NCBI GenBank assembly: GCA_050251055.1
Contig: JBFWNL010000004.1
Location: forward strand, 192,001 to 256,000
Origin: Bacteriovoracia bacterium
GTDB lineage: Bacteria > Bdellovibrionota > UBA1018 > JBFWNL01
Direction: 5' to 3'
Length of the DNA stretch: 64,000 nucleotides
Below are positions 1-60,760 of the stretch, in pieces; positions within the stretch are counted from its first letter, which is position 1, and each line of letters opens with the position of its first letter. The notes under the pieces were generated by a model. It did no database searches. It worked only from the letters and a program-made list of their open reading frames with translations, and was not told the DNA's origin. The translations under genes and the position numbers were made by a program.

Positions 1-432
1 TTGTATTCATTTACATTCCAATCTCGACCATACTCCCATAAGCCCGAAAAAATCAAAAAAATGTATCTCGAAGAGAGAATGAGTGCTCGCGAAATCGCGG
101 ATGAACTCAACGTCTCACAAACGCATATATTAGATCGTCTCAATCGAATGGGCATAGGTTTGAAAAGTGGCAAAGGTCGCATGACCGATCCCAATAATTA
201 CAAATGTCCTAAGCCCCCTTACGGCTGGAAGCTAAGAGACAGAAAGCTTGTTCCCAACAAAGCGGAACTGCAAATTTGTCGGTATGTCGTCAATCGTGTG
301 CGCCAAGGAAAAAATGTGGCTGAAGTGCAACGCGAAATGACACAAAAGAATTTTAAAAACCGCAATGAAAACTCCAATTGGGATCACAAGGCGGTCATGA
401 ATATTTACAAAAAATGGAAAGATAAACTGTAA
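1..432 (+). CDS. HTH + recombinase-type DNA-binding domain protein (open at window edge; alternative start ATG 61)
   Basis: MSAREIADELNVSQTHILDRL helix-turn-helix, then PPYGW..LVPN..E...W motif typical of the serine-recombinase DNA-binding domain; no catalytic domain. Confidence 0.7.
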   Translation: MYSFTFQSRPYSHKPEKIKKMYLEERMSAREIADELNVSQTHILDRLNRMGIGLKSGKGRMTDPNNYKCPKPPYGWKLRDRKLVPNKAELQICRYVVNRVRQGKNVAEVQREMTQKNFKNRNENSNWDHKAVMNIYKKWKDKL

Positions 433-8751: not shown

Positions 8752-9465
8752 TTAAATTCCATAAATAATTTCCTTCGAGACGAGCCGGTGAAGCACTTTG
8801 GACAAAGCTTCAGATGTAATCATATATTTGTCGAGCGCCTTACCGAGAGTCGACCCCGTTTTGAGTGAATTCAGAAACTCGAATAGATGCTTGTCGATAA
8901 TTTCTACGGTAACAGAGTCATGATCGCGAAAAATGAAAGAATACTCTTTTTTGTTCTCAAGTGGGGAAATCGAATTTCTGCGTTTCCATATTTCAGCAAC
9001 GTTCCACTCGGATTCAAAAAGGAACAGTGAGTCTTGAAGGAGAAATTGAGTGTCCCCACTAATCTGAGTTAGGGCGTCAGGCCGAAGCATGATTTCTTTT
9101 TGATGAGCATGAAACGAATGCCAAATTTTCAGTTCGAAATCGGCGACTGCAAGCCAACGACGATCTACGCCTAATTGATCTAGAAATTCGGGAAAACTTT
9201 CACCAATATGATTGAAAGAATAGTTCTTTGACGGACGGAGGCGAACATAAGCTCCGCCCAAACGATGCCACTCTTCTTCACCAATCAATTTGGGTAAGAG
9301 TTCAAAAATTTCTTCCATGGCGGACTGCGTTCGAAGCGAATAACCTTCCGCATAGATTCGAAATCGATCGGAAAGACTGCCTCTCTTCGGGGGTTTCAAA
9401 AAATCGAGAGCACTTTCGGGGAATTTTTGAATGGCTTCATCAAAAATCTTCAGCTCAGAGTGCAT
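8752..9465 (-). CDS. DUF2063 MNIO partner protein (BufC/HvfC-like)
   Basis: RFRIYAEGY, GESFPEFL, VADFEL motifs; directly downstream of the DUF692 gene; ATG 9465 overlaps the upstream gene end. Confidence 0.8.
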   Translation of the reverse strand: MHSELKIFDEAIQKFPESALDFLKPPKRGSLSDRFRIYAEGYSLRTQSAMEEIFELLPKLIGEEEWHRLGGAYVRLRPSKNYSFNHIGESFPEFLDQLGVDRRWLAVADFELKIWHSFHAHQKEIMLRPDALTQISGDTQFLLQDSLFLFESEWNVAEIWKRRNSISPLENKKEYSFIFRDHDSVTVEIIDKHLFEFLNSLKTGSTLGKALDKYMITSEALSKVLHRLVSKEIIYGI

Positions 9466-10279
9466 ATTTTTTTCGTTCCATGCCCTGAGTGATTTCATAT
9501 GCTTTTTTGACTTCTTGAACGAGAATTGAAAACTCTGGAATTTTATCATCGCGTTCAATCAAGAAAGGTTTGGCCCCCAAGTGCCGCCAGACGAATTCGA
9601 AGAGGTCCCAAACGGGATCGGTGATATCGGCATCGTGTGTATCAAATAGAAAATCTCCCATATCTGTGTGACCGGCCAGATGATACTGGACGACGCGATT
9701 GGCGGGAATTCTTAAAATATAGTCATAAGGATCGAACCCATGATTGATCGAGTTCACGTACACATTGTTAATATCGAGAAGAAGATCACAGTCCGCGCGT
9801 TCGATAACTAAACGAACAAAATCAGCTTCATCGAGTTCGTCGGATTGGAATCGAACGTAAGTCGAAATATTTTCGAGTGCAATGCGGCGTCCTAAAACAT
9901 CTTGTACCTTTTGAATACGAGAGACTAATAAGTCGATCGTCACTTCATTCATGGGAAGCGGCAAAAGATCGTGCCAGTTTCTTTGTTCGATCCCGGTCCA
10001 ACACAGATGATCTGAAACAATAAAAGGATCGATTCTCTCCACGAGAGTTTTAAGATTTTTAAGGTAATTCGGATTCAGGGGGTCCGAACTTCCGATATTG
10101 AGAGACACCCCGTGAAGAGCGACAGGAAATATGTCTCTTACTTTGAGTAGCGTTGAGAGCGGTCGGCCACCAGTGTCCATATAATTTTCAGATATGACTT
10201 CACACCAATCGACGGACGATGGATTCGAAAGAATGTCCTTATAGTGGGAAGGCCTCAGCCCTAGACCGCGCGTTTTCAT
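9455..10279 (-). CDS. bufB: DUF692 multinuclear non-heme iron oxidase (MNIO), bufferin maturase
   Basis: GLGLRPSH, EVISENY, LHGVSLNIG, SDHLCW, LENIS, LLDINNVYVN, HLAGH, DTH, IERD. Confidence 0.93.
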   Translation of the reverse strand: MKTRGLGLRPSHYKDILSNPSSVDWCEVISENYMDTGGRPLSTLLKVRDIFPVALHGVSLNIGSSDPLNPNYLKNLKTLVERIDPFIVSDHLCWTGIEQRNWHDLLPLPMNEVTIDLLVSRIQKVQDVLGRRIALENISTYVRFQSDELDEADFVRLVIERADCDLLLDINNVYVNSINHGFDPYDYILRIPANRVVQYHLAGHTDMGDFLFDTHDADITDPVWDLFEFVWRHLGAKPFLIERDDKIPEFSILVQEVKKAYEITQGMERKKYAL

Positions 10280-26501: not shown

Positions 26502-26580
26502 TTAAGTGACACTATACCAAACTCTCCTAAGGAGATGGAATAGTGCACTTGGAAAATTAAAAAATGCACGAACTTCAAGT

Positions 26581-26598
26581 ATGTTTACATATAAACCA
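26581..26598. promoter_or_regulatory. 18-bp palindromic operator, copy 4, upstream of marR (autoregulation)
   Basis: ATGTTTACATATAAACCA, 80 bp upstream of the marR start. Confidence 0.65.
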
Positions 26599-26631
26599 GC
26601 GTCGAGTCCTGGGCCCAGATCTAAGACGCAC

Positions 26632-26904
26632 TCAGGATTTTCCCACACCGGCTGCACGAAGGGCCTGCTCCGTCACCGATCCAGCTCGACAACAGTCCAA
26701 CAATTTTCCGTCAACCACAACGGCGGGAACGCGGGTGACCCCATACTGTTTCGCCAGGTCTCGACATTCGTTGGTTGTACAGTCAGCATTCAAATCGTAG
26801 ATAACCACATCACAAGAGGGGCATGCTGTCTTTTTCACGAGGTCAATGATAGGTTCACAAACAGGGCATCCAGAGGTGAAGACTTCAATTTTTCTTTTTG
26901 TCAT
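26632..26904 (-). CDS. small thioredoxin/glutaredoxin-fold protein (CPVC, CC)
   Basis: IEVFTSGCPVC, YGVTRVPAVVVDGKLLDCC. Confidence 0.85.
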   Translation of the reverse strand: MTKRKIEVFTSGCPVCEPIIDLVKKTACPSCDVVIYDLNADCTTNECRDLAKQYGVTRVPAVVVDGKLLDCCRAGSVTEQALRAAGVGKS

Positions 26905-26925
26905 AATTGGGTCCTTTCTAATCTT

Positions 26926-26957
26926 ATCCTTCAGTCTATACCTAGGTATAAGGTCAA
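26926..26957 (-). promoter_or_regulatory. MerR-type promoter/operator for the thioredoxin gene
   Basis: TTGACC -35 followed by the dyad TATACCTAGGTATA (26937-26950) in an elongated spacer. Confidence 0.7.
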
Positions 26958-26992
26958 GGCGGGTTTAAATTTCAGCACTTTAGCGCTCAATC

Positions 26993-27024
26993 TTGACTCT
27001 ATACCTAGGTATAGGGTGTATGAT
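26993..27024 (+). promoter_or_regulatory. MerR-type promoter/operator for the merR operon
   Basis: TTGACT-N20-TATGAT with the perfect 16-bp dyad CTATACCTAGGTATAG (26999-27014) in the spacer. Confidence 0.85.
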
Positions 27025-27033
27025 GTTTTAAGT

Positions 27034-27456
27034 ATGGGTTCGCCGAAAAAGTCTGAGTATTCGATTGGGCAGCTTGCCAAGATGGCACACGTTAATGTTC
27101 AAACAATTCGCTTCTATGAACGTCGAGGTATTCTCAGGCCAACGACAAGGCAGGATTCGGGTTACCGAGTCTACGATACCGAAAGCCTCAAACGACTTCA
27201 CTTTATTCGGCAAGCGAAAGACCTGGGATTCAGCCTGAAAGAAATTCAAAGTCTCCTGAATTTAAGGGTCCGTTCCGTTGGACGTTGCGATCAGGTCAGA
27301 GCCAAAGCCGAACACAAGCTGAAAGACATTCAACAGAAGATCGCTCATTTGAAAACGTTGGAGCGCACGCTGAAGCGTCTTATTTCTGATTGCGAAAATC
27401 GCGTCGTTTCGGACTGCTGTCCGATCGTAACTCGAATGGAGGTAGGAAATGTCTAA
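27034..27456 (+). CDS. MerR family heavy-metal-responsive regulator
   Basis: SIGQLAKMAHVNVQTIRFYERRG, GYRVY, FIRQAKDLGFSLKEI, Cys sites C..C...CCP; true start ATG 27034, not 26506. Confidence 0.92.
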   Translation: MGSPKKSEYSIGQLAKMAHVNVQTIRFYERRGILRPTTRQDSGYRVYDTESLKRLHFIRQAKDLGFSLKEIQSLLNLRVRSVGRCDQVRAKAEHKLKDIQQKIAHLKTLERTLKRLISDCENRVVSDCCPIVTRMEVGNV

Positions 27457-28144
27457 ACTTAAACTGCTTTATTTTGAGGGCTGTCCCAACGCGGAAGGAA
27501 TACGAAAGATTTTAGTGAATTCGGGGCATGAATTCGAGGAGATCAGGCAAGATGACCTCAGCTCTCAGGACCCGCTGAAGCAGTATTCTTCCCCGACTCT
27601 TCTTAAGGGGAATGATCTAATTTTCGGAACGCCAACCGGGGCCGCAGGGGGCTGTTCATTACAGATCCCCTTAGCTAAAGAACTTTTAGCCAAAATCGAG
27701 AAATCGCGATTGGACTCGCCCACAAAAGGAACCAATCTCGTTACGTCTTCCGGTTCGCTGGGCTCGATCCTAACGGTGATCTTGTGTCCGGTCTGTAAAC
27801 CAGCGATAGCTCTTTTATTAAGCTCTCTTGGGTTGGGTTTCGTCATTCAAGAGGCCGCCTTACAAAAAATACTCATTGTCTTTCTCTCGCTCATGATACT
27901 TGGCTTGCTGTGGTCTTACTGGAAGATCCACAAAAACTTTGCGCCGGTTCTTGTTGGATTTCTCATGGCTGTTGGACTTTATATAAGTCGTTATATGTAT
28001 TTTGGAGATGCGATTAATACTGTCCTTATGTACGGAAGTATCGGGGGTCTTGTTGCAGTGAGTATTTGGAATTTATTTCTCAAACGACCGGTCTCCTGCG
28101 AGACTTGTGTCGTCGCCAATCGGGAAAGGAGATCAAAGCTGTGA
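27449..28144 (+). CDS. thioredoxin-like domain fused to a MerC/MerT-like membrane transporter
   Basis: LYFEGCPN...SPTLL N-domain; TM CPVC motif and C-terminal CETC. Confidence 0.7.
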   Translation: MSKLKLLYFEGCPNAEGIRKILVNSGHEFEEIRQDDLSSQDPLKQYSSPTLLKGNDLIFGTPTGAAGGCSLQIPLAKELLAKIEKSRLDSPTKGTNLVTSSGSLGSILTVILCPVCKPAIALLLSSLGLGFVIQEAALQKILIVFLSLMILGLLWSYWKIHKNFAPVLVGFLMAVGLYISRYMYFGDAINTVLMYGSIGGLVAVSIWNLFLKRPVSCETCVVANRERRSKL

Positions 28145-29903: not shown

Positions 29904-31214
29904 TTGATCATGAATAAACTTGGCATTTTAGTCGGTCTAATGGTCTCGGGTTTGTACTCGCTCCCGTCTTTGGCGGATTCCCATAATGAGTCGCGCCCTA
30001 TGAATTCTAAAGACGAATCCATTTCGTTAGAGCAAGTTTTGCAGCTTGCCACTCACCAAAATCCTCAAAGGAAAGAAGCCGATGCCGGTGTGAAAGCGGC
30101 GGCCGAAGCCATCACTGCCCGCGAACCTCTTTTACCTCCTCCCACTTTTACTGTGGGGTCGATGGGAAGCAGTGGCCCGTTCTCGTCTTCGGGGCATATG
30201 GAAACTTCCTTTGCCATCAGTCAGACGATTCCATTTCCGACAAAAACTTTTTCGAATCGAAGTGCGTTAAGAAGTTCCTTGAAAGCGACTCAAGCCTCGG
30301 AGCAAGCGTTCACCCTTGAATTAAAAAACAGAGTCAAAAAAGCCTATTACGCTTATTTGGAAGCAAGCCAGAAACTAAGTCTCCTTCAAGAACTTCGTGG
30401 TGTTTATCGTCACCATTTGAAACGCCTTCGCTCGGGTCCGGTACAGGATCAACTTATGAAAGCTCACCTCATGAGTGCTCAAACAGAAATTGATTTGATT
30501 CAAAACGAAATGATTGAAGCCACTGAACGTTTAGAGATTCATCGAGGCGAGCTTAATGTGCTCATCGGAAAGGATGCCTATGCGCCATTGGGTAACCCCG
30601 AAAGTCGACCTCTTTCGCCTCTTCCAGAAAAACTGGATCAAAAAAAATTCCAAGAACTCTCAGCTCGGCATCCTGAACTCCTAGCAGTGGATGCAGGACT
30701 TCAAGCGGTTACAGCCGAAAGAGCGGCGGCTCGCTCAGCTTGGTTACCCGATTTCATGCTGAGTTACCGCGTGAATCGACGCTACGATACTGTCCCGAAT
30801 AATTCAGAAGTAATGGTTGGTGTTTCACTGCCGTTTGTGACGTTTTGGCAGCCTCGCTCTCAGAACGCTGAAATGAATGCGCGCCTTGATATGGCCCACG
30901 CTCAGCAACTCCAAAAGCAGAACGAATTTTCACTCCGTTCTCTTAGAACTCAAGCCATGCTTTCCAGCCTTCATCAGCAACTCATCAACCTAGAAAACCG
31001 TCTCGTTCCTCAAGCCAAACGTCGAGTCGATTTAGTAACAAGTTCTTCCCCGACCGACATGAATTATCTCGATGAGCATCGAGCCGCACTCGAACAATAT
31101 GTGAAACTTAAACTCCAAGCCGTTGAAAAGAAAACGCAATACGAAATGGCCATTTCTGAGCTTGAGAGTCTTACAAATTTAAGTGCGTCAGACGTAAGCG
31201 GAGCCAAGGAGTAA
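29904..31214 (+). CDS. TolC/CusC-family outer-membrane efflux protein
   Basis: Signal peptide, SQTIPFP, VKKAYY, WLPD, GVSLP; first gene of the RND operon. Confidence 0.85.
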   Translation: MIMNKLGILVGLMVSGLYSLPSLADSHNESRPMNSKDESISLEQVLQLATHQNPQRKEADAGVKAAAEAITAREPLLPPPTFTVGSMGSSGPFSSSGHMETSFAISQTIPFPTKTFSNRSALRSSLKATQASEQAFTLELKNRVKKAYYAYLEASQKLSLLQELRGVYRHHLKRLRSGPVQDQLMKAHLMSAQTEIDLIQNEMIEATERLEIHRGELNVLIGKDAYAPLGNPESRPLSPLPEKLDQKKFQELSARHPELLAVDAGLQAVTAERAAARSAWLPDFMLSYRVNRRYDTVPNNSEVMVGVSLPFVTFWQPRSQNAEMNARLDMAHAQQLQKQNEFSLRSLRTQAMLSSLHQQLINLENRLVPQAKRRVDLVTSSSPTDMNYLDEHRAALEQYVKLKLQAVEKKTQYEMAISELESLTNLSASDVSGAKE

Positions 31215-31218
31215 TGGT

Positions 31219-32211
31219 ATGAAACTTTTTACAAAGGTCATGATCCCGATGAGCGTCTTGTCGCTTGGTATTTTAAGCAGCTGCCAAAATTCTCAAAATA
31301 CAGATTCGAAGGCCGAACATCAGCATGCGCCTCAGACTTCAGCCATGGCAGAGCATTACACCTGCCCCATGCATCCCCATGTAAAAATGGATAAGCCAGG
31401 CTCGTGCCCGATCTGCCATATGCCTCTTGTGAAAGTGACTGGCTCGAATTCTGAGAACTCTGTATCTAAAGAAAATTCAAAACCTCGAATTAAATTCTAC
31501 CGGCATCCTATGAATCCAAGCATCACCTCCCCCGTACCCGCAAAAGACGATATGGGCATGGATTATATTCCGGTGTTCGAAAGCAGTGACGATAGCACCA
31601 GGCAAGATGGATCGATTGAAGGTCGATCTTCGGTGACATTAAATTCCAATCAATGGAAGGCCACAGGAACTCAGCTCATTGCTGTTCAAGCGAAAGATAT
31701 CGACTACGAGATCGAAGCTCCCGGACGGGCTCTTTCTTCCAGCCAAATTTCGATTCAAATCTTTGAACAAGATTTATCGTTGATAAAAAGAGGACTCAAA
31801 GTGAAGGCTAGAAGTCCGCTTTTGCCGGACCAAGAACTGGAAGGTCAGGTGACATCGATAGATTCGTTTCTTGATCCGATGACTCGAACCGCACGCGTCA
31901 ATGCAGTGTTGAAAAATTCTTCTCCTCTTCAATCCGAAAGTTCGCTTATTGCTCGGATCATCATCTCCCTTCCCAACCGACTCGTCATTCCAGAATCGGC
32001 CGTTCTTCATACTGGAAAACAAGATCTCGTCTTTGTTCAGGTAAGCGAAAACACGCTGAAGCCACGAGCGATCATTCTTGGCGTGAAATCAAAGGGCGAA
32101 TACGAAGTTTTAGCAGGCTTAAGTAAAGAAGAAAAAATCGCCACTGGGCCTAATTTTCTTCTCGATTCCGAAGCGCAAATTCGGGGTCTCGCCGAAGGCG
32201 AGCGAAAGTGA
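31219..32211 (+). CDS. cusB: CusB-like periplasmic adaptor with heavy-metal-binding domains
   Basis: Lipobox, YTCPMHP..CPICHM, FYRHPMNP..DDMGMD, IPESAV, FLLDSE. Confidence 0.88.
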   Translation: MKLFTKVMIPMSVLSLGILSSCQNSQNTDSKAEHQHAPQTSAMAEHYTCPMHPHVKMDKPGSCPICHMPLVKVTGSNSENSVSKENSKPRIKFYRHPMNPSITSPVPAKDDMGMDYIPVFESSDDSTRQDGSIEGRSSVTLNSNQWKATGTQLIAVQAKDIDYEIEAPGRALSSSQISIQIFEQDLSLIKRGLKVKARSPLLPDQELEGQVTSIDSFLDPMTRTARVNAVLKNSSPLQSESSLIARIIISLPNRLVIPESAVLHTGKQDLVFVQVSENTLKPRAIILGVKSKGEYEVLAGLSKEEKIATGPNFLLDSEAQIRGLAEGERK

Positions 32212-32217
32212 TCAGCC

Positions 32218-35200
32218 ATGATTCAAAAAATCATTAGGTTCTCTGCAGAAAATCGGCTCCTCGTAATTATTTTTACCGCGATTGCCTGCATCGGTGGCGT
32301 GCTTGCATTAAAGCATATTCCTATTGATGCGATTCCGGATCTTTCAGATACACAGGTCATTATCTATTCGAAATGGGACCGCTCACCGGATCTCGTTGAG
32401 AATCAGCTTACGTATCCCATTGTTTCAGGGCTTTTAGGAGCTCCCAAGATCAAAGCTATTCGCGGATTTTCTGATTTTGGATTCTCCTACGTCTATGTGA
32501 TTTTTGAGGATGGAACAGATCTCTATTGGGCCCGATCCCGAGTTTTAGAGTACCTCAATCAAATTATTCCGAAACTTCCAGAAGGAGCGGTCACCGAACT
32601 CGGGCCCGACGCCACGAGTGTCGGTTGGGTTTATCAATATGCCCTGATCGACAAATCCAGAAAAAGAGATGCTTCCGATTTAAGAACTCTGCAGGACTGG
32701 TCGCTTAAATTTCAACTCCAATCCGTGCCAGGTGTAGCCGAAGTGGCATCGGTCGGAGGGTTTCAAAAACAATACCAAGTTCAGGTGAATCCAACCAAAC
32801 TGCGCACCTTCCATGTGACCTTTGATCAAGTGATGAAAGCGGTCCGCGACTCCAATCAGGAAAGCGGAGGTCGCGTGATCGAATTTTCCGGCACGGAAGC
32901 AATGGTCCGAAGTCGGGGACTCATTTCCACGGTGGAAGATATTGAAAACACCGTTGTCGCTTACAATCCTCAAACGCGCGCTTCTGTTCTCGTCAAACAG
33001 GTCGCGCATGTTGCTCTTGGTCCTGAGATGCGACGAGGTGTAACCGATCTTAACGGCGAGGGTGACGCGGTGGGTGGTATCATTGTCATGCGCCACGGCG
33101 AAGACACGGTTTCGGTGATCGACCGCGTGAAACAAAAAATAGAAGAATTGAAACCGGGGTTACCCCACGGGGTGGAGGTCGTAACGGTGTATGATCGCTC
33201 GGATCTCATTCATCGTGCGATTAATACTCTCAAACATAGCCTCATTGAAGAACTGATTATTGTGAGCTTAGTCATTCTCTTTTTCCTCTGGCATTTTCCT
33301 TCGGCTTCCATTCCCATCATCACGATTCCGGTTTCCATTTTGCTCGCCTTCATTCCACTTTATTTCATGGGTATGACGGCCAACATCATGTCGTTAGCGG
33401 GTATTGCGATTTCGATTGGAGTGCTTGTCGATGGAGCAATTGTAGAAGTCGAAAATGCCTACAAGAAAATTCAGCACTGGGATCAAACGGGGAGAAAAGA
33501 AAGTTTTCATAAAGTCCGACTCGAAGCTTTATTGGAAGTCGGTCCTTCGGTTTTCTTTTCCCTGCTCGTCATCGCGGTGGCATTCCTCCCAATTTTTACC
33601 CTCGTCGATCAAGAGGGAAGGCTTTTTCGACCTCTCGCGTGGTCAAAGAATCTTACGATGGCCGTAGCCGCAATTCTTGCTATTACCTTAGATCCCGCAC
33701 TTCGTATGCTCTTTGCGCGCTTCGAACCTTTTCAGACGCGCTTTCGCTGGCTGAACCCTTTCCTGAACACCACACTCATTGGAAAATATTATGCCGAAGA
33801 AAAGCATCCGATCAGTCGAAGGCTGCATCGCCTCTATGAACCCGTTGTGCATTGGGTGCTTGCACGTCGAGGTTTGACTTTGGGTCTCGCAGCTCTGCTG
33901 ACGTTAACGACCGTTCCAGTCTATTTTCAATTGGGCCGAGAATTCATGCCGACCCTGCATGAAGGAAGTCTTCTTTATATGCCAACGGCTTTGCCTGGAA
34001 TGTCGATTCCAGAAGCAGCGCGTGTACTTCAAAAGCAAGATGAAATTTTAAAATCATTTCCTGAAGTGGAAACCGTTTTTGGGAAAGCCGGACGCGCCGA
34101 CACTTCGACCGATACAGCACCGGTCTCGATGGTCGAAACCACCATCATTCTTAAGCCAAAATCGGAATGGCGAAAAGTTGATCGCTGGTACTCCCGTCTT
34201 CCAGATATTCTTGAATTTCCATTCCGCCCCTTTTGGCCGGATCGCCTTGATGAGGAAATGCTCATTTCTGAAATGAATGAAAAACTTCAGTTTCCTGGGA
34301 TGCCCAATATCTGGACGATGCCTATTAAAAATCGCATCGATATGCTCTCTACCGGCATTCGAAGTGCTTTAGGTATTAAAATTTTTGGTCCTGATCTGAA
34401 GATAATTGAAACGATCGGGAAGAATATCGAAGAGGCGTTGAAAAATTCGTCTGGCGCACGGTCCGTGGTGGCTGAACGAGCTGCCAGTGGCTTTTTCTTG
34501 GATGTCGATTTCAACAGAACGGCTCTGTCAGCTTATGGTTTAAATCTTAAAGACGCGCAAGACCAGGCGATGGCTGCTATTGGAGGAGAGAATGTCTCGG
34601 TTTCACTTTCAGGACGCGAACGTTATCCGATCCAGGTACGCCTGGCGCGGGATTATCGAAATGACATTGAAACGATTAAAGCACTTTTCATTTCAACACC
34701 TTCCGGTGGAAGCATTCCCCTTTCAACGATTGCTGACATTCAAGTGAGACAAGGTCCGAGCATGGTACGAAATGAAAATGCCATGCCGGTTGGCTACGTT
34801 TTTGTTGATGTGGATCCCGCCAAAACGGACATCGGTAGTTTCGTCAAACGCGCCAAAGAAATTGTTCAAACGAAGGTTGAGCTGCCAGACGGCTACTTTC
34901 TTTCTTGGAGTGGACAATATGAAAATATGACACGGGTCAAAGACAGGTTGATGATCATTGTCCCACTCACTCTTTTGGTGATTGCTTTTCTCCTTTTTTT
35001 AAACACGCAGTCCTGGATCAAAGTGGGAATTGTGCTCCTGGCTGTTCCCTTTTCTTTGATTGGAGCGGTTTGGCTGCTCTGGCTTCTTGACTACAATCTT
35101 TCTATCGCGACGTGGGTCGGCATGATCGCGCTTATGGGTCTTGATGCCGAAACGGGTGTGTTTATGCTCCTCTACTTAGACCTGGCGTTTAATCGCCGAA

Positions 35201-35484
35201 AACAAGAAGGAAAGATGGCCACAAAACAGGATTTAACCGACTCCATTATTGAGGGAGCGGTCCATCGTCTTCGACCCAAGTTGATGACAGTGGCGGCAGC
35301 ATTTCTCGGTCTCTTTCCCATCATGTGGTCCACGGGAGCGGGCGCGGATGTGATGAAGCGAATTGCCGCCCCGATGATTGGGGGTCTGTCCACATCATTT
35401 CTACTCGAACTTCTGATCTATCCCGTCATTTTTTATATCTGGAAAATAAAACAAGAGCCAAAACTAAAAGTCGTTCGCCAATAA
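32218..35484 (+). CDS. cusA: CusA/SilA heavy-metal efflux RND transporter
   Basis: DAIPDLSDTQVII, LGPDATSVGWVYQY, MPIKNRIDMLSTG, RLRPKLMT, MKRIAAPMIGG. Confidence 0.95.
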   Translation: MIQKIIRFSAENRLLVIIFTAIACIGGVLALKHIPIDAIPDLSDTQVIIYSKWDRSPDLVENQLTYPIVSGLLGAPKIKAIRGFSDFGFSYVYVIFEDGTDLYWARSRVLEYLNQIIPKLPEGAVTELGPDATSVGWVYQYALIDKSRKRDASDLRTLQDWSLKFQLQSVPGVAEVASVGGFQKQYQVQVNPTKLRTFHVTFDQVMKAVRDSNQESGGRVIEFSGTEAMVRSRGLISTVEDIENTVVAYNPQTRASVLVKQVAHVALGPEMRRGVTDLNGEGDAVGGIIVMRHGEDTVSVIDRVKQKIEELKPGLPHGVEVVTVYDRSDLIHRAINTLKHSLIEELIIVSLVILFFLWHFPSASIPIITIPVSILLAFIPLYFMGMTANIMSLAGIAISIGVLVDGAIVEVENAYKKIQHWDQTGRKESFHKVRLEALLEVGPSVFFSLLVIAVAFLPIFTLVDQEGRLFRPLAWSKNLTMAVAAILAITLDPALRMLFARFEPFQTRFRWLNPFLNTTLIGKYYAEEKHPISRRLHRLYEPVVHWVLARRGLTLGLAALLTLTTVPVYFQLGREFMPTLHEGSLLYMPTALPGMSIPEAARVLQKQDEILKSFPEVETVFGKAGRADTSTDTAPVSMVETTIILKPKSEWRKVDRWYSRLPDILEFPFRPFWPDRLDEEMLISEMNEKLQFPGMPNIWTMPIKNRIDMLSTGIRSALGIKIFGPDLKIIETIGKNIEEALKNSSGARSVVAERAASGFFLDVDFNRTALSAYGLNLKDAQDQAMAAIGGENVSVSLSGRERYPIQVRLARDYRNDIETIKALFISTPSGGSIPLSTIADIQVRQGPSMVRNENAMPVGYVFVDVDPAKTDIGSFVKRAKEIVQTKVELPDGYFLSWSGQYENMTRVKDRLMIIVPLTLLVIAFLLFLNTQSWIKVGIVLLAVPFSLIGAVWLLWLLDYNLSIATWVGMIALMGLDAETGVFMLLYLDLAFNRRKQEGKMATKQDLTDSIIEGAVHRLRPKLMTVAAAFLGLFPIMWSTGAGADVMKRIAAPMIGGLSTSFLLELLIYPVIFYIWKIKQEPKLKVVRQ

Positions 35485-35724: not shown

Positions 35725-36492
35725 ATGGAAGGGAAACCGCTAACGGAGAACTGCAAACGTGTTTACGATTCGAAAGAGCATGTCTGTTTTGGCATCAGTC
35801 CCTTTAATAGCTATTTTTCCGAACGGCGTCTTCGCGACCTGGCGCATTGGGGACGCTCCCATTTCCAGTCGATGCATTTTTTTGTGCCAGATGTACCCGC
35901 CGCTTACACGCTTGAAGCTTTAGGCTACACGCCTGAGCGTGCCGCCTGGAAAGCTCGCCGCCAGGCAAATTGGCTAAGAAACAAAATTATCCGTTCCCTC
36001 ATCAGCCTCAGTTTCACTCACCACGAATCAGAAAAAATGGTCTTGGATTGGGAAAAACTAGTCAGCATTTCCCGGTTTCAAGAAATTTATAGGGAGATTC
36101 AAGGTCTTTTTCGTAAAGATTCCGCCTTTCGAGGTGCGTGTATCGAAGCTTCGCATTGGATTTTAGAAAAGCGAGTTGCGGATACTTTAGCTCTTACTGA
36201 TGAAGCTCTTTTACGAGCTGTTGAGTATTTTCTTGCCGAGATCCCCCTCTTCCTTGATGCAGCAAGCATTTTAAATCAAAAAGCATCGGTCTTCGCTTAC
36301 CACCAGAGTATTCCATTTCTCGAAAATCTTTATCGAAACCAGTTCTTCTGCCAGGTCCCATCCGAGCGACAGGGCTATGTCATTCTTGCGGCAAAAAAAG
36401 AAAATGAAATAAGGGACGCAAATTCACTTCACTTGCAGCCGCCTATCTCTGAATCAGGGAATTATGAAGTGTCTCTTCCATCTGAAGATTAG
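35725..36492 (+). CDS. tRNA-dependent cyclodipeptide synthase (NYH subfamily)
   Basis: HVCFGISPFNSYF (HxxxGISxxNxxF), YFLAEIP (YxxxExP), AYH; GGAGG RBS. Confidence 0.9.
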   Translation: MEGKPLTENCKRVYDSKEHVCFGISPFNSYFSERRLRDLAHWGRSHFQSMHFFVPDVPAAYTLEALGYTPERAAWKARRQANWLRNKIIRSLISLSFTHHESEKMVLDWEKLVSISRFQEIYREIQGLFRKDSAFRGACIEASHWILEKRVADTLALTDEALLRAVEYFLAEIPLFLDAASILNQKASVFAYHQSIPFLENLYRNQFFCQVPSERQGYVILAAKKENEIRDANSLHLQPPISESGNYEVSLPSED

Positions 36493-47698: not shown

Positions 47699-47868
47699 AC
47701 GAAATGATTCCAACGAAATTTAAGTTCGATGGTTTGAAAACAAAGTGCTTCGAGATCCTTTCCTTTGTGCCCATCGTGCTTTGTTTTCTAGGTTGGCTCG
47801 CTCTCGTCATCGGCTTCTTTATGGAGGCCTCGAAATTCGTAGAACTTCAGCAGGGACTTCCGCGATGA
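47695..47868 (+). CDS. 57-aa single-TM protein between virB3 and virB4
   Basis: Read manually: MNEMIPTKFKFDGLKTKCFEILSFVPIVLCFLGWLALVIGFFMEASKFVELQQGLPR; ATGA overlaps at both ends. Confidence 0.6.
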   Translation: MNEMIPTKFKFDGLKTKCFEILSFVPIVLCFLGWLALVIGFFMEASKFVELQQGLPR

Positions 47869-50297
47869 ATTTTACATCACGCGCCTTAGCGGACCGGATT
47901 CCGCTTTGGCATTTTGAAGGGAATTCCGCTGTATTTTCGGACGGCTCACTCGGAGCAGGCTTCAAACTCAAAGGTTTTGATGCCAGTGTTTCCGGCGTTG
48001 AAAGTTTTAATCAATTTGCTTTTGCGCTTGAAAACCTCATTCATACGGCTAGGGAAGGTTTGACGTTACAGCTTTATTACAAGGTGGGTCATGATGTCTC
48101 ACTTCTTCTCCATAAACACGAGGAGCTAACAGGATCAAAAGAAGGGGCCTATCAAGAAGTGGCGTACGCTCGTTTTGAAGATCTTCAAGCGAGAGCCAAG
48201 CAAGGAAAATTCTTTCAGGCGGATATTTATCTTTTTATTCGCAGTGAGGGCCAAAAATATCAGAAGAAGAAATTTTGGGAGGCTGAAAAGAAGTTTATTG
48301 CGCTGACTCAAAAGCAATTTTTAGAACAAAAAGAAAAATTTGAGCGCGATCTAAAACAAATGGAATCGTCTCTGACTCAGGCTGGCTTAGAACCGATCGC
48401 TCTGAATGCGCGAACATGGGTCCGTCTTTTGTTTGATTCGCTGAATCCGGGCCGCGCGGATAAAATTGGATATCCTCAGTTCAACTTCGAGGATGAAGTT
48501 TTTCCTCAACCCATTTCGCAGCAAATTCTTTTGTCGGATGTGATCGTCAACGAAGAAAGCGTTCAGATTAACGAAGAGCATTTAAAGTGCTTGAGTCTCA
48601 AAACTCTTCCCGAGGCGAAGTCTACGATTGGCATGGTGCTTCCACTTCTGGAATTGCCCTTTGCGTATGAAATCTCCCAAACCATCAAAATTTGCGATCA
48701 GAAGAGAGAAATCGATAAACTCCACGTTCAAAGGCGTGTCACGCATTCCTTTGCGAGTGGTTCCGGAAAAATGAGTGATTTGGAGTCCGAATCAAAACTC
48801 GGACACATCGAGGAACTTATTCGTGAGCTGTTAGAAGGCTCCGAAAAAATTGTGGCTTCGAGTGTCAATGTTCTCATCAAAACCAAAGATCGAAATGAGC
48901 TTCAGGAGCGATCCGATGAAGTCTTGAAAGCCTTTCGGTCTGTGAATCAAAGCGAAGGAATCGCAGAAACCCTTGGAACCTTCGATGGTGTTTTAGCATC
49001 GCTTCCAGGCTTGGGGCTCACATTCAGAGATAAGAAAATGAAATCAAGTAACGCGACACACTTGATGTCGCTCTACACCTCATGGGGCGGCAATGCGCGT
49101 CCCATCTGCCTGCTTCCAAATCGCGACGGCGAACTGGTGCGCATCGACCCCTTTGCTTCGAGTCTCCCGAACTGGAATGGCCTTATCTTTGGAGGAAGTG
49201 GTGCGGGAAAAAGTTTTACGATTCTGCATCTCATGCTCATGTTCTATGGGCAAAGGCCAACGCCAAAAATTGTTTGGATTGATAATGGAGCGTCTTCTCA
49301 AAAGCTTCTCGAAGTTTTGGACGGAGAATTCGTTGATCTCAATATTAAATCATCCATCCGAATTAACCCATTTGATTTGGAGCCAGGGCTCGATGCACCA
49401 ACTCCTTCTAAAATCAAACTGATCTTAGCAGTCCTCGAAAGTATTCTGAAAGAAGGTCCGAATACGGGACTTCCCAAGCGGAACAAAGCGCTTTTAGAAG
49501 AAGCTATTTTTCAAATCTATGAAATGAAAAGAGGAGACGTACCGACACTTTCAGATTTGAAAGTCTTTCTGAAGGCTCATTCCAATCTTGAAATGAAAGC
49601 CTATGCGGATACCCTCTTTTCTTGGACGGGAGAAACCGCCTACGGACAAATGCTCGATGGAAAAACGAATATTGCTCTTCAAAAGGATCTGATCACAGTT
49701 GAAACGAAAGGGCTCGATGATTATCCCGATTTGCAAAATGTTTTTCTTTTGCTTTTTACGGATTATATCAAATCAGAAGCATCCCGAGATAAAAGTAGGC
49801 CCTATCTTCTCATTCTCGATGAGGCCTGGAAAATGTTTCAAACGCCAAGTGGACTTCAATTTACGATTGAAGCTTACCGGACGTTTCGAAAATTCTTTGG
49901 AGGAATTTGGTGCATTAGCCAAAATTACAAAGACTTTCTTTTCAATCAGGAAATTAGAAATGCCATTTTTCCGAATACGACGAGCACCTTTGTTTTAAAA
50001 CAGAGAGCGATTGACTGGAAAGATTTTGCGGAAACGCTTCAACTCAATGAAGCAGAGATTGAGGCGATTAAAAGTATCCAGGTAAAAAAAGGGGAATATT
50101 CGGAAATCTTCTTTATGCAAGATACCGGACGATCGATTCTCAGAATCGTTCCTGATCCCTTGGGCTACTATATTTGCACGAGTGATCCCGTCGATAAGAG
50201 TCTTATCGAAGAGCAAAGACAGAAAAATCCAGAGCTTTCACAGCTTGAAGTCTTAAAGCTTCTTGCCAACAAACGAAGGGAACATCTTTATCAATAA
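47865..50297 (+). CDS. virB4: VirB4/TraC-like conjugation ATPase
   Basis: NGLIFGGSGAGKS Walker A, LLILDEAW Walker B, RTFRKFFGGIWCISQ; start ATG 47865. Confidence 0.9.
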   Translation: MNFTSRALADRIPLWHFEGNSAVFSDGSLGAGFKLKGFDASVSGVESFNQFAFALENLIHTAREGLTLQLYYKVGHDVSLLLHKHEELTGSKEGAYQEVAYARFEDLQARAKQGKFFQADIYLFIRSEGQKYQKKKFWEAEKKFIALTQKQFLEQKEKFERDLKQMESSLTQAGLEPIALNARTWVRLLFDSLNPGRADKIGYPQFNFEDEVFPQPISQQILLSDVIVNEESVQINEEHLKCLSLKTLPEAKSTIGMVLPLLELPFAYEISQTIKICDQKREIDKLHVQRRVTHSFASGSGKMSDLESESKLGHIEELIRELLEGSEKIVASSVNVLIKTKDRNELQERSDEVLKAFRSVNQSEGIAETLGTFDGVLASLPGLGLTFRDKKMKSSNATHLMSLYTSWGGNARPICLLPNRDGELVRIDPFASSLPNWNGLIFGGSGAGKSFTILHLMLMFYGQRPTPKIVWIDNGASSQKLLEVLDGEFVDLNIKSSIRINPFDLEPGLDAPTPSKIKLILAVLESILKEGPNTGLPKRNKALLEEAIFQIYEMKRGDVPTLSDLKVFLKAHSNLEMKAYADTLFSWTGETAYGQMLDGKTNIALQKDLITVETKGLDDYPDLQNVFLLLFTDYIKSEASRDKSRPYLLILDEAWKMFQTPSGLQFTIEAYRTFRKFFGGIWCISQNYKDFLFNQEIRNAIFPNTTSTFVLKQRAIDWKDFAETLQLNEAEIEAIKSIQVKKGEYSEIFFMQDTGRSILRIVPDPLGYYICTSDPVDKSLIEEQRQKNPELSQLEVLKLLANKRREHLYQ

Positions 50298-50979
50298 AAA
50301 ATTTATGGTGGGAGTGGTGACGGTACTTTCTTTAAGTATTGTCAGCCGCCCTGTTCGCGCCGATCTCTTTGGTGGCGACGTGGCGGTGCTGACACAAATC
50401 TTGGCGCAGAATATTAAACATTATTACCAGTTTCAGCAGATGATTTCGGAAGCACGCGGACAGCGCGACTTTTGGAGGTTACTGAATGCCGGGATCGATA
50501 ATCTCTCAGGCTTAATGATGGTCATGCCCATTAAGGATCAAAAACTTCTCGAAGAACTCACGACGTTTAAGTCCGCCATGAAAAGAGTGGAAGTGCTCTA
50601 TGGAACCATTCCTGTGAGCGCGGAAGCGCCTCTTCAACTTCTTCATGATCAAACAGTTGCGGAAAGCATCAAACTTACAAATGATTCGAAGGACTATGCG
50701 GATAAGCAAGAACAAAATGCGGTGCGCATTATTGCAGAAACGCGAGGGGCGAGCCCCAAAGGGGCTGCTCGAATTTCGGCCCAAGCGAATGCGGAGATTT
50801 TACATACACTCAATCAACTTTTGAAACTGAATGGTCAAATGCTGAAGCTCCAAAGTGAGCAGCTCGCGGTCAGAAACAAAGAAGAGAAGGATTCGGTTCG
50901 CCACTTTAAACGTGTGCAAGCCGATGTCGGCCATTCTGCATCCACCTACCGAGCGGATCTTGGTTTTCCTAAGTTTTAA
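50263..50979 (+). CDS. VirB5/TrbJ-like exported protein (true start may be slightly downstream)
   Basis: Signal peptide then ADLFGGDVAVLTQIL; helical/coiled-coil; position. Confidence 0.6.
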   Translation: MPTNEGNIFINKKFMVGVVTVLSLSIVSRPVRADLFGGDVAVLTQILAQNIKHYYQFQQMISEARGQRDFWRLLNAGIDNLSGLMMVMPIKDQKLLEELTTFKSAMKRVEVLYGTIPVSAEAPLQLLHDQTVAESIKLTNDSKDYADKQEQNAVRIIAETRGASPKGAARISAQANAEILHTLNQLLKLNGQMLKLQSEQLAVRNKEEKDSVRHFKRVQADVGHSASTYRADLGFPKF

Positions 50980-50981
50980 AT

Positions 50982-51842
50982 ATGTACGACTGGTTACCCC
51001 AGGTCTGTCGCGAGATTCGCGCGGAAATGATTCAAATTTATTGGATTCTCATTATCCCTTTCATGATTGTCTGCGCTCTTTTTATTTTAGCCAAAGGGGG
51101 CGAAGAGGCGGGTGCTGGAGCGAAGCTTCTGAAAAGGACTTTTCTCTCGATCCTTCTTCTTTTGGTCTTTGATGATTGTATGAACTTGATTGCGCAAGTC
51201 GCCGATGGAGTGTCTGAAAAAATTAATGGATTGGCGCAACTCAAAGCCGTTTTGGAAGAGACGGGAAAGGTCATTGAAAATCAAAAGACCGGTTGGCTTG
51301 AGTTTCGGCAGTGGATGATTTTTTTCATCAATTTCTTTGCGTATTGCGTAGCGTATTTAGGATTTTTCTTGGCGGAAGCCATTATTCATTTTGTGTGGGC
51401 GATCCTATATATCGCCTCTCCCTTAATGATTTTGATGTACGTCTCGGAAAAAACGGCTTTCGTCACAGGAAATTTATTTAAGGGACTTATCAATGTGGCG
51501 ACTTGGAAAGTGCTCTGGTCGATTTTGGCCGTCTTGTTACTGAAACTGATGACAACACCTCAGGTGGGTGGTGCCGATAATTTCCTATCGTCCGCCATTA
51601 TGAATCTTTGTGTGGGTATCAGTATGCTTTTTGTGCCTTTCGCCGCGAAATCTCTTATTGGAGACGGAATGTCCGGCATGGCGAATCTTGCCGGGGGGTT
51701 CTCTGCCGGTCTGATTGCGAAACTTACGTATGGCAAAGTGATGGAACTTGGAAAGAAAGGAATTAAGGCGCCGCTTAATTTGCTCACTCCTAAAAAGGGG
51801 GGTCGAGCGAATTACACGAAACCAAAAGGAAATCCTCGATAA
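50982..51842 (+). CDS. VirB6-like polytopic membrane protein
   Basis: Multiple TM helices, YIASPLMIL, Gly-rich tail; position. Confidence 0.7.
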   Translation: MYDWLPQVCREIRAEMIQIYWILIIPFMIVCALFILAKGGEEAGAGAKLLKRTFLSILLLLVFDDCMNLIAQVADGVSEKINGLAQLKAVLEETGKVIENQKTGWLEFRQWMIFFINFFAYCVAYLGFFLAEAIIHFVWAILYIASPLMILMYVSEKTAFVTGNLFKGLINVATWKVLWSILAVLLLKLMTTPQVGGADNFLSSAIMNLCVGISMLFVPFAAKSLIGDGMSGMANLAGGFSAGLIAKLTYGKVMELGKKGIKAPLNLLTPKKGGRANYTKPKGNPR

Positions 51843-52452
51843 CTTATTATTAGGAGAAATTTTGATCACAAATCCTCTGAAAACGGAAAATCAATGGAAG
51901 GAACTCAATCGAACCTTAAACTTTTATAAACTACTCGCCCTTATTTCAGGAAGTGCGGCTCTTCTTTGTCTCATCATGACCATAGGCGGCGCATTTTCAA
52001 ACCCCATCGTCGTGATGAAGAATGAAACAGAGCATTGTTTCGTAAAAGCCAACAAGGAGGCGATTGATATTACGGACAATGATGTCACGGAGTTTGTACG
52101 CGACTGGGTCGTCACTCGCTATGAATGGGAAACACTTAATGAAGAAAAACTCATTCGAAGTTTGTCTCCCTTTACGAGTGAGGGTCTTCTTCAGAAAATT
52201 CGCGAGCAATTTAGGAGTGGCGCTGAGAAAGAGTTTAAAGAAAAACAAGTTTCTCAATATGTTTCTAAAAGCATCCGCGTGAAACTTGCGGACAAACAGG
52301 TGCTCGTGAACTTCGATCGAATTTTACGAGTGAATAATATTCCTCTGATTGATCCCGCCCAAATGAGTTTTACTTTAGTGCGCGGAACGAAATCTAAAGT
52401 GAATCCTCAAGGGATTTATGTGAATGGAATCACCGAACATAAATCAAACTGA
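51748..52452 (+). CDS. VirB8/TraK-like bitopic protein (true start probably ~51860)
   Basis: One TM helix, FVRDWV..RY, C-terminal NPQGIYV motif typical of VirB8. Confidence 0.7.
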   Translation: MERKELRRRLICSLLKRGVERITRNQKEILDNLLLGEILITNPLKTENQWKELNRTLNFYKLLALISGSAALLCLIMTIGGAFSNPIVVMKNETEHCFVKANKEAIDITDNDVTEFVRDWVVTRYEWETLNEEKLIRSLSPFTSEGLLQKIREQFRSGAEKEFKEKQVSQYVSKSIRVKLADKQVLVNFDRILRVNNIPLIDPAQMSFTLVRGTKSKVNPQGIYVNGITEHKSN

Positions 52453-53153
52453 TGAAATATCTTATTGTGGTGTGGATAGCGGTATTTTTTCTTTTTGCTT
52501 CTCAAGCAAGAGCTGCTGTGCGAACAGTGGATGCAAGCGAGCGGTCGATGACGCCCATTTTTTTAAGTCTTGGGCGCTCGACCGTGTTGAGGTTTCCCGA
52601 GAAGCCTCGAAAAGTCGTTCTTGGAAATAAAAACTATTTCAATATTGAATTTATTGAAAACGATGTGGCGATCCAACCGCTTGGTGTGGTGACGACAAAC
52701 CTCTTTGTGTACGGCGAAGCGCATAGCTTTGGCTTTATACTTCATTCGGGCGGAGGCGCCGACGATTTGGTCCATGTGCGATGGGCTTTGCCAACTGAAC
52801 TTAAGACCCATCTTCAATCTCAAGTCGTTCAAATCAGAAAAATCGGAAAGCAGTTCTCCATTGGAAAAAAACTTCAGCTTCGCTTAGAGCGACTCGCTCA
52901 ACTGCGATCGAAAAATCTTTTTTGGGTAGAAGCTTTGCTTCTTTCGCATGAGGAAAAAACAATCTCCGTGAAAGAAGTTTCGGTGAATCTTTTTGAGGGG
53001 AGCCGAGAAGTGAAAGCCAAATGGGTTTGCCAGAAGGATGCCTTGGAACCTCTTCAGGGAAATCCTTGTCGTTTGTTCTTACCGAATTCCAAAACAGGGG
53101 GCTATACACTCAAAGTCAAATATCACGGCACGAATGTGCAAGTGAGTTTTTAA
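52452..53153 (+). CDS. VirB9/TrbG-like protein
   Basis: Signal peptide, LGRSTVLRFPEKPRKVVLGN, IQP...TNLFV. Confidence 0.7.
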   Translation: MKYLIVVWIAVFFLFASQARAAVRTVDASERSMTPIFLSLGRSTVLRFPEKPRKVVLGNKNYFNIEFIENDVAIQPLGVVTTNLFVYGEAHSFGFILHSGGGADDLVHVRWALPTELKTHLQSQVVQIRKIGKQFSIGKKLQLRLERLAQLRSKNLFWVEALLLSHEEKTISVKEVSVNLFEGSREVKAKWVCQKDALEPLQGNPCRLFLPNSKTGGYTLKVKYHGTNVQVSF

Positions 53154-53156
53154 TTT

Positions 53157-54107
53157 ATGAAATCTTTAAAATGGAAAGTGTCAGATCTGACGGATGGGGT
53201 GAGAGCGAAATTAAAAAAACTGAAAGAGAACCTTTACATTCAAGACGGACAAAAACGCCGCCTGAATGGTTGGTTCATTGCTCTTATGGGCATTCCTCTA
53301 TTGATCACGGGCGCACTCGTGAATACCTTTTGGGAACGCAAGGATACAAGCTACCTCGCTCAAAGTTCGGACGTTCCTAAAATATCGGAGACGGAGCCAG
53401 AAAAAACTATTGGCCCCGGGAATCAGAACTCCCATTCGTCCGTAGTTCTACGGGAAGAAAGCGCCATGTCGTCACGCACAGTCTCTACAGGAATGAAGCT
53501 TCGGTATTCAGCGAAACAAGTGATTGATCGTTTTTCTGGAATGCCTGCTGGAACAAATTTTATCGGGAAACTCATTACAGGCATCGACACGCGAGACCCA
53601 AGTCAGATGGTCAAAGTCGCGCTGCCCTATGGAGTGGTCTACCAAGGCTCGAGAAATATCGAACGCGGTGCAGCGCTTATGGGCTCAGCTCAATATACAG
53701 GCAACGGCGACAAGGTGTTTATTAGATTCAATCGTCTGATCAACACCGATGGCACCGAATATCCTGTTCAAGCCCAGGCCCTTAACAGTCGCGATTTCAC
53801 TGCCGGGATCAGCGGGGATCTCAACACCAATATGGATTCTCGCATGATGGCTGCGATGGGGCTTAAAATGATCGCCGCAGGTTCGGATGTGCTTGTTGAA
53901 AAAGAATCATTAGGCAACAGCTTTCAACCAACTCCAAAGTCCTCTCTTAAAAATGCAGCGATCGCAGGCGTTTCAGAGGCAACTGAGATGGAAGCGGAAC
54001 GAAGGCTCTCTCAAGCAGGCTCCCAAGAGGACTACGTGATCGTGGAACCTGGTGTCGAAATGATCATCAGTCTCATGGAACCCTTTCGTGGAGAAGCTCG
54101 ACCTTGA
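53157..54107 (+). CDS. VirB10/TrbI-like protein
   Basis: N-terminal TM helix, PAGTNFIGKL, VFIRFNRLI, GISG, IVEPG. Confidence 0.75.
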   Translation: MKSLKWKVSDLTDGVRAKLKKLKENLYIQDGQKRRLNGWFIALMGIPLLITGALVNTFWERKDTSYLAQSSDVPKISETEPEKTIGPGNQNSHSSVVLREESAMSSRTVSTGMKLRYSAKQVIDRFSGMPAGTNFIGKLITGIDTRDPSQMVKVALPYGVVYQGSRNIERGAALMGSAQYTGNGDKVFIRFNRLINTDGTEYPVQAQALNSRDFTAGISGDLNTNMDSRMMAAMGLKMIAAGSDVLVEKESLGNSFQPTPKSSLKNAAIAGVSEATEMEAERRLSQAGSQEDYVIVEPGVEMIISLMEPFRGEARP

Positions 54108-57294: not shown

Positions 57295-57342
57295 CATTGT
57301 ATCTAAATGGATATATCTATAATGGATAATTATAGTGGAGTT

Positions 57343-59581: not shown

Positions 59582-59651
59582 ACCAATAGGAAGACTTATC
59601 TATAACAGCCCGGATGGGCCTCAGCAATCAAGGATTAACGGACTAAATGGC

Positions 59652-60740: not shown

Positions 60741-60760
60741 GATGTGATCCTTGCTGCTGA

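Follow-up and report, generated by a model that had tools for sequence, protein, structure and literature searches.

Does an ORF with DNA-binding motifs at one edge of a mobile element belong to the integrase gene at the other end? The window, by which we mean the whole 64,000-nucleotide stretch of DNA that was analyzed, opens inside a reading frame of this kind and carries, 59 kb away and on the same strand, a gene for a large serine recombinase that runs into a tRNA gene. The initial annotation had suggested that the left ORF may be the missing C-terminus of the integrase, which excision could join to it in frame. Comparison of the predicted proteins indicates that the left ORF is very probably the detached tail of the integrase gene, which would mean that a long integrase is made from the circle and a short one from the chromosome. 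We put at roughly three in four the probability of the whole reading, in which attP would lie inside a longer int gene, integration would detach a module composed of an HTH and a second recombinase-type domain, and the circle and the integrated copy would encode the long and the short form, respectively.

The left-edge ORF, the serine integrase and the element between them

The left ORF occupies positions 1–432 of the + strand (143 codons, stop codon at 430–432) and is open at the first base of the window. Comparison with Pfam identified PF07508 (Recombinase; E 3.8e-5, 24.3 bits against a gathering cut-off of 21.1). The match is partial, residues 89–135 being aligned with profile positions 3–48 of 102. 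Fifteen HTH-type matches, all below threshold, were located at approximately residues 15–55, and no Resolvase catalytic domain was detected in this ORF with Pfam. These data agree with the initial annotation, which had described an ORF open to the window edge with HTH and recombinase motifs but no catalytic domain. In PHROGs the ORF matched phrog_95 ‘integrase’, in the recombinase-domain part of this phage serine-integrase family (E 2.3e-10). The nearest Atlas clusters consist of ‘recombinase domain-containing’ proteins of 135–188 amino acids, which are commonest in Bdellovibrionota. PF07508 was matched by 30 of 52 members of the left-ORF family (E<=1e-3), and when a profile of this family was compared with the ORFs of the window, ORF 1–432 was the sole match.

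The full predicted left ORF, P0001, has 157 amino acids and is the same as the window ORF except for the codon at the edge, with 14 additional residues at the N-terminus. Positions 1–432 of the + strand thus hold the 3′ 429 nt and the stop codon of the tail gene, corresponding to residues 15–157 of P0001. The protein begins with a linker, which is followed by an HTH (approximately residues 29–63) and a second, partial recombinase-type DNA-binding domain (approximately residues 85–153). An AlphaFold2 model of this module, built from an alignment of 52 sequences, had a pLDDT of 88 overall and only 63–78 for residues 1–27; after residue 27 it showed a three-helix HTH, a hairpin and three helices. 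The best PDB matches found with Foldseek were complexes of serine integrases with DNA (9y66, 9dxh, 4kis and 6dnw; E 4e-3 to 7e-2, probability 1.00, TM by query 0.39–0.48).

A 57-codon ORF (449–622) with a hydrophobic N-terminal half starts 16 nt after the left ORF, and a terminator-like hairpin, apparently acting in both directions and located by consensus scan only (733–752), closes the short unit formed by these two ORFs. Similarity to the HTH of the left ORF extends to proteins of 400–820 amino acids (P0141, P0162, P0167, P0174 and others), which contain 4–10 tandem copies of a similar HTH unit and are without the recombinase-type domain.

The integrase gene (57708–59546, + strand) has the same orientation as ORF 1–432, at a distance of 59 kb, and encodes 612 amino acids; this would be the short isoform of the integrated state. 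The protein is organized as a large serine recombinase: an N-terminal Resolvase domain (PF00239, residues 50–202, E 1.9e-29) is followed by a Recombinase domain (PF07508, residues 229–338) and a zinc ribbon (Zn_ribbon_recom, PF13408, residues 353–418) with a coiled-coil-like stretch at residues 462–536. S56, situated in a Y-V-R-L-S motif and at least 90% conserved among 52 sequences, is the putative catalytic nucleophile as judged from this motif. The N-terminus aligns from residue 1 with that of P0002 (63% identity). The best NCBIfam match was CcrB (NF047343, an equivalog), at 170.8 bits against a curated cut-off of 900; the integrase is a relative of CcrB and not a member. An intact gene for a Cro/C1-type HTH regulator, recognized by domain match and in PHROGs, lies directly upstream of int (57307–57585, + strand).

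As the initial annotation had stated, the integrase ORF has no stop codon before the tRNA. It reads through 56 nt of the antisense strand of tRNA-Ser(GCT) and ends with a TAG at 59544–59546, 54–56 nt inside the tRNA gene, where it overlaps the anticodon loop. Residues 1–596 are encoded by the element and the last 16 by the antisense strand of the tRNA. The possibility of an incomplete integrase was rejected: no canonical domain is absent, and relatives are of matching length. The notion of a missing C-terminus needs one correction: a detached tail is supported, but the integrase without it lacks no canonical domain and the part lost would be an extra module.

The G+C content is 0.42–0.48 from the first base to 60000 and 0.55–0.56 beyond, to the right of the tRNA. 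We propose that the window contains nearly all of an integrative conjugative element (ICE) of approximately 59.5 kb situated at the extreme 3′ end of tRNA-Ser(GCT). Domain matches identified a conjugation/transfer module at 47745–56316 (+ strand) with a VirB4/TraC-like ATPase (47745–50297), a TrbI/VirB10-like protein (53157–54107), an FtsK/SpoIIIE-type translocase (54104–55567) and, as a weak match, Replic_Relax (55564–56316), all on the + strand. Cargo in the low-G+C stretch comprises genes for metals, phosphonate and others. The regions 26506–28144 and 29904–35484 encode a MerR-family fusion with a MerC-like membrane protein, an outer-membrane factor, a membrane-fusion protein with a heavy-metal-binding domain and an AcrB-type RND pump, a set that suggests metal resistance. 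The element also encodes, at 35725–36492, a cyclodipeptide synthase (PF16715, E 3e-63) and, at 9455–10279, an MbnB/TglH/ChrH-type RiPP-modifying enzyme (E 2e-103). The right flank (59600–64000) encodes an OmpA-family protein, an M35-type metallopeptidase, a LysR regulator and a coiled-coil protein with a weak match to an ice-binding-like repeat.

The tRNA target and the left junction

The target, tRNA-Ser(GCT), is on the − strand at 59491–59581 according to ARAGORN and at 59494–59581 according to Rfam (RF00005). Apart from the tRNA itself, no match to the 25-nt tRNA 3′ end with up to three mismatches was found in the window, so that only one border of the element is visible there. A long duplicate of the tRNA at the far end, of the kind left by tyrosine integrases, was considered and rejected, the inferred identity being only about 7 nt, which is in keeping with a serine recombinase. 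Shared 9-mers between 1–700 and 59001–59500 amounted to eight short direct matches, none of which resembled accessory binding sites.

Positions 59472–59483 at the right border and residues 7–10 of P0001, described below, would belong to a 48-bp attP-like dyad centred at 59495/59496. The element-derived half-site of attR, the P arm, would be at 59472–59495 (+ strand) within the int frame, with GTTCG (59472–59476) at half-site bp 20–24. The host-derived half-site, the B′ arm, would be at 59496–59520 (+ strand) and would consist of the tRNA acceptor and T arm, with CGAACT at 59510–59515. The putative crossover dinucleotide at the dyad centre (59495–59496), placed by symmetry only, is GG on the + strand and corresponds to tRNA positions 72/71. 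The element would therefore supply only about the last five bases of the tRNA, namely CCA, the discriminator and position 72. The inverted pair AGTTCG/CGAACT occupies half-site bp 20–25 in the P arm and bp 15–20 in the tRNA arm, so that CGAACT in the B′ arm sits 5 bp nearer to the centre than its counterpart in the P arm. For serine integrases, the zinc-ribbon motif has been located at bp 16–24 in attP and bp 11–19 in attB, a shift of 5 bp (Rutherford et al. 2013, PMC3783163). The offset seen here would be a good fit to that shift, as judged from symmetry and not from mapping. Short att sites of serine integrases are imperfect dyads of about 40–50 bp; the P and B′ arms agree with this, and the P′ arm is represented by four amino acids only. 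Inside the 3′ end of int, at 59454–59479, two 8-nt stretches (GGACGAAC and GTTCGTCC) form a perfect inverted repeat around a 10-nt spacer and provide a second copy of CGAAC on the element side of the site.

The left junction was read at the protein level from the 14 residues of P0001 (42 nt) that precede the first base of the window. P0001 starts with Met-Ala-Asp, which fits xTG-GCN-GAY, the antisense of the GCCA end of the tRNA (TGGCGGA at 59491–59497). At the right border the integrase codons over TGGCGGAG at 59490–59498, the antisense of the tRNA end ...CTCCGCCA, are Val(gtg)-Ala(gcg)-Glu(gag). Met-Ala-Asp of P0001 and Val-Ala-Glu of the integrase would thus be encoded by the same seven bases in the same frame, Val(gtg)-Ala(gcg) lying over 59490–59495. 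The residue at the junction is Val in relatives and Ala here; the sole other relative listed with a Ser-type tail, P0043, also has Ala. Val is the residue that a discriminator A would encode, as opposed to the G of tRNA-Ser, if the junction is read as above.

The residues that follow point in the same direction. Translation of the reverse complement of 59472–59486, the codons for VRPLF in the integrase, gives KQRTN, and residues 6–10 of P0001 are EQRTN. Residues 7–10 (QRTN) equal the reverse-complement translation of 59472–59483 and are found at the mirror position; in the six-frame translation of the whole window QRTN occurs once, at 59472–59483. In the joined reading the two QRTN-related stretches are 48 nt apart and symmetric about 59495/59496. 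From the protein sequence, the left end beyond the window thus appears to bear the arm found inside int in inverted orientation, as expected if the two together make up a serine-integrase attP. The DNA of the element would start approximately 36 nt to the left of the first base, giving the element a length of about 59.5 kb.

Position 1, taken by the initial annotation as the end of the island, is strictly the edge of the window; the N-terminus of P0001 would put attL a mere 14 codons or so away. The distance to attL would accordingly be short, no stop codon intervenes between the start of P0001 and the window ORF, and the frame is continuous with that of the integrase. Together with the fused relatives described below, the junction residues, the frame and the mirror arm argue for the proposed in-frame fusion upon excision.

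Could the left-edge ORF instead be an unrelated recombinase remnant in a larger island, with the true attL far to the left? The window contains no tRNA duplicate and its low G+C content extends to the very edge, as would be expected of such an island. We nevertheless regard this explanation as highly improbable, since it leaves unexplained why the N-terminus of P0001 should agree with the tRNA end, with the frame and with the mirror arm, and why the whole family should share this junction. When a collection of genome contigs was scanned for the left ORF, two HTH matches came up (36% and 41% identity over 44–63 residues), both unrelated, and tblastn with P0001 gave no match in annotated collections of either plasmids or phages.

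Relatives of the integrase and of the tail protein

A total of 290 integrase relatives were found, and the best 120 (33–63% identity) were examined. Those listed under a name belong to Bdellovibrionaceae, Bacteriovoracaceae and Oligoflexia. The C-terminal ends of the listed relatives are mostly antisense-tRNA peptides. A V-R..F.L-V motif was present in the C-termini of 62 of the 120, and in 47 of these 62 it was accompanied within 14 residues by an antisense T-arm peptide of the G[VIF]EP or R[FL]EL type or by a.RT. pattern; by our own estimate, chance alone would produce such short patterns in only a few per cent of tails. About 25 more of the 120 listed relatives read the antisense strand of a tRNA in another frame (...NRTLVRK, ...WIRTSD). 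This other-frame group (P0010, P0021, P0035, P0036, P0106–P0119 and others), with tails such as ...GGGGNRTLVRK and ...DWIRTSD, is largely separate on the tree.

Relatives of the tail were sought by phmmer with P0001 against 1.84 billion representatives. The search yielded 574 matches at E<=1e-3, including 134 at E<=1e-10, and the best 150 were examined; 99 of these were family-like and the rest were mostly proteins of repeated HTH units. Among the 99, an N-terminus of the form M-[V/A]-[D/E...] was found in 27, although in two of them (P0216 and P0152) the pattern appears to match by chance. Another 15 begin with the Val codon of the junction, 10 have an N-terminal extension with the junction motif internal, and for the other 47 the start is either further inside or unclear.

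Relatives of the left ORF come either as proteins of about 156 amino acids starting at the junction or as the C-terminal domain of uninterrupted integrases of 702–741 amino acids. In the fused protein P0102 (702 amino acids) the last 128 residues match P0001 end to end (E 9e-11). The fused protein P0044 (739 amino acids) matched P0001 weakly in BLASTP (E 0.009 over 73 residues); its cluster mate P0274 (741 amino acids) is encoded on a 124-kb contig. P0044 and P0102 each contain two PF07508 stretches. P0137 and P0149 are each similar to the window integrase as well as to P0001 (E 2.6e-34 and 3.4e-29, respectively, for P0001), P0149 being without the catalytic half and located on a 2.4-Mb contig. 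The identity of these proteins (P0044/P0274, P0102, P0137 and P0149) to P0001 is 22–40%. Such fusions are rare, accounting for 2 of the 120 listed integrase relatives and no more than 10 of the 99 tail-family matches. In a tree of 107 integrases P0044 falls within a clade of 15 sequences, nine of them with tRNA tails (SH-aLRT 96); this nesting indicates that the fused form is a state of the same lineage. P0102 has a long branch and its placement is unsure. The occurrence of P0149 and P0274 on large contigs shows that the uninterrupted arrangement is not confined to small circles; tandem copies, carriage on a plasmid or decayed elements are possible explanations.

Other searches were negative. 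P0044 compared with plasmids by tblastn matched only distant integrases (up to 58% query cover, about 28% identity). A word-based search with P0001 at near lengths returned, among five candidates, only P0001 itself as a relative, and one with the left-ORF family alignment at longer lengths returned two multi-HTH proteins and no fused form; matches in the latter search are easily crowded out, and its negative result is weak.

When aligned, the three states are in register: the integrase ending ...LV followed by a tRNA peptide, the stand-alone protein starting MV[D/E][R/Q]P...TN..., and the fused integrase ...LV[D/E][R/Q]P...TN... The arm columns on the integrase side, taken from 62 tails, are V, R, T/P/S, V/A/L and F/S; those on the tail side, from 40 junction-starting proteins, are N, T, G/W/R, Y/C/Q/H and E/G. 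Column by column these are reverse-complement partners, although only 52 of the 400 ordered residue pairs are compatible with such partnering. The column-wise agreement implies that what look like conserved peptide motifs are most simply explained as the two arms of attP read as protein.

These data also bear on a simpler explanation, namely that the left ORF stands on its own as a gene, for instance for a regulator or recombination directionality factor, lying beside attL with its own start at the junction, so that continuity of the frame has no functional meaning. The directionality factors of serine integrases are small and diverse, a description that the tail protein would fit. It is, moreover, a complete, confidently folded two-domain unit in the AlphaFold2 model, and 42 of the 99 family-like relatives start at the junction codons (27 with M-[V/A]-[D/E] and 15 on the Val codon). 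The relatives do not, however, have a ribosome-binding site and start of their own upstream, and the ‘start’ would arise by chance with three of the four possible flanking bases beside the antisense CCA. The internal Met at window position 61 is not conserved, being L, V or M in relatives. The low-confidence linker (residues 1–27) still carries the conserved mirror motif, which suggests a constraint at the DNA level, and the frame is open across the junction in the divergent and independent P0044/P0274, P0102, P0137 and P0149, which are fused in frame. We therefore consider an autonomous gene unlikely and favour the detached integrase tail.

A proposed state-dependent integrase and its relation to known systems

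In the arrangement that we propose, attP would lie within the frame of a longer int gene, between the recombinase core (catalytic domain, recombinase domain and zinc ribbon with coiled coil) and the extra C-terminal module. The circle would contain a single ORF of about 750 codons, made up of integrase residues 1–596 followed by P0001 from residue 3. Integration would cut this ORF at the point corresponding to tRNA positions 72/71 and exchange its last 155 or so residues for 16 encoded by the tRNA. The right end would then encode the 612-residue integrase with its 16-residue tRNA-encoded tail, and the left end a headless tail ORF of 157 codons, whose first codon would come from the antisense CCA of the tRNA remnant. 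Because the arms of attP would have to be translated, they would be visible as mirror-image peptide motifs.

It follows from this arrangement that the integrating enzyme would be translated from the circle, as the long form, and the excising enzyme from the integrated copy, as the short form with or without the free tail protein. Different isoforms would thus serve the two directions, and the module would be a DNA-binding arm specific to one state. Its role is probably the control of direction: most likely it would help the synapsis of attP with attB or the choice of target, and its loss would bias or regulate the reverse reaction. The short form may be acted on in trans by the free 157-residue protein, whose start would come from the antisense CCA. 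A more far-reaching proposal, which we put forward tentatively and think less probable than not, is that this mainly Bdellovibrionota integrase family has a built-in directionality switch, the long form made only by the circle integrating at the CCA/acceptor end of the tRNA, and the short integrase with the tail protein governing excision with no conventional directionality factor.

The same architecture would also be compatible with one-way, self-disabling integration, in which the short form is inactive and the element is locked in place. The integrases of the SSV family are reported to have the recombination site inside the ORF, so that integration breaks up the integrase gene (PMC7253208), a ‘suicidal’ outcome; and among the relatives listed here, integrated truncated copies far outnumber fused ones. 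This seems to us rather improbable, slightly more so than an autonomous tail gene. The short form keeps every canonical serine-integrase domain, the conjugation module is apparently intact and would be useful only with excision, and the variety of tRNA genes in which truncated copies occur implies ongoing mobility. The reading with two functional isoforms is preferred.

Serine integrases are valued as tools of genome engineering because their direction is set by protein factors and not by the sites. If the proposal is right, different isoforms in the integrated and the free state would constitute a new, self-contained way of setting direction, in a family of serine recombinases that habitually uses the 3′ ends of tRNA genes. 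For annotation, Bdellovibrionota ‘recombinase domain-containing’ proteins of about 156 amino acids would mark the far end of islands and antisense-tRNA tails on integrases the near end, so that the two in combination would delimit an element on both sides.

The initial annotation had drawn an analogy with mycobacteriophage BPs, in which attP lies in the repressor gene and a 33-residue tail with a degradation tag is lost (PMC4557955). In BPs the difference in C-terminus between the two states is reported to serve as a switch. The logic is shared, attP lying inside a gene so that the integrated and the free state encode different C-termini, but the analogy goes no further: int itself would be the gene that is split here, and its product is a serine recombinase, which the enzyme of BPs is not. 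The piece lost here would be a DNA-binding module, and integration-dependent immunity of the BPs type is not what we see, the Cro/C1-type gene at 57307–57585 being intact.

Integrase ORFs that span attP are already known. Reported cases are IntP of the myxophage Mx8, whose ORF spans attP and is altered by integration (PMC4383910), and the SSV-type archaeal integrases, whose gene is split on integration (PMC7253208). As in these systems, the int ORF crosses the junction of element and host in the integrated state, here by 56 nt into the tRNA; the longer uninterrupted ORF is seen in the relatives P0044, P0274, P0102, P0137 and P0149 and, for this element, would follow from the frame and the junction residues. 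Unlike the present enzyme, those of Mx8 and SSV are tyrosine recombinases, and in SSV it is the catalytic protein that is split, whereas here the serine core would survive and an accessory module would be lost.

Serine recombinases at stable-RNA genes have also been described: mycobacterial AICEs in tRNA-Leu and phiRSM1 in tRNA-Ser (PMC3218068), and the CcrB-like DsiB of the Dehalococcoides ssrA islands at the tmRNA gene (PMC3146451). Such targets are called rare in these papers (PMC3218068, PMC3146451) and unknown in another (PMC4383910). The integrase studied here resembles these enzymes in being aimed at the 3′ end of a stable-RNA gene, and CcrB was its best NCBIfam match. It differs from them in that those papers report no int gene spanning attP, whereas here a whole, mainly Bdellovibrionota, family appears to have this arrangement at many tRNA genes.

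A search of CC-licensed PMC and bioRxiv literature brought up no serine integrase described as losing a complete folded C-terminal DNA-binding module upon integration into a tRNA gene; the nearest case is that of the streptococcal ICEs that target rumA. According to Ambroset et al. (2016, PMC4701971), rumA and the integrase gene of these ICEs each contain one of the two direct repeats, and integration exchanges the 3′ ends of rumA and int and alters the C-terminus of the integrase. In both systems, then, the enzyme is the large serine recombinase of an ICE with a C-terminus that is changed by integration. The rumA ICEs differ in that the target is a protein gene and in that the sequence, length and frame of the tail are altered, with no detachable folded DNA-binding domain reported by these authors. 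Here approximately 155 residues with two DNA-binding folds would be removed, and the stand-alone and fused forms recur across a large family. The new part would be the loss of the module as a family habit at the 3′ ends of tRNA genes.
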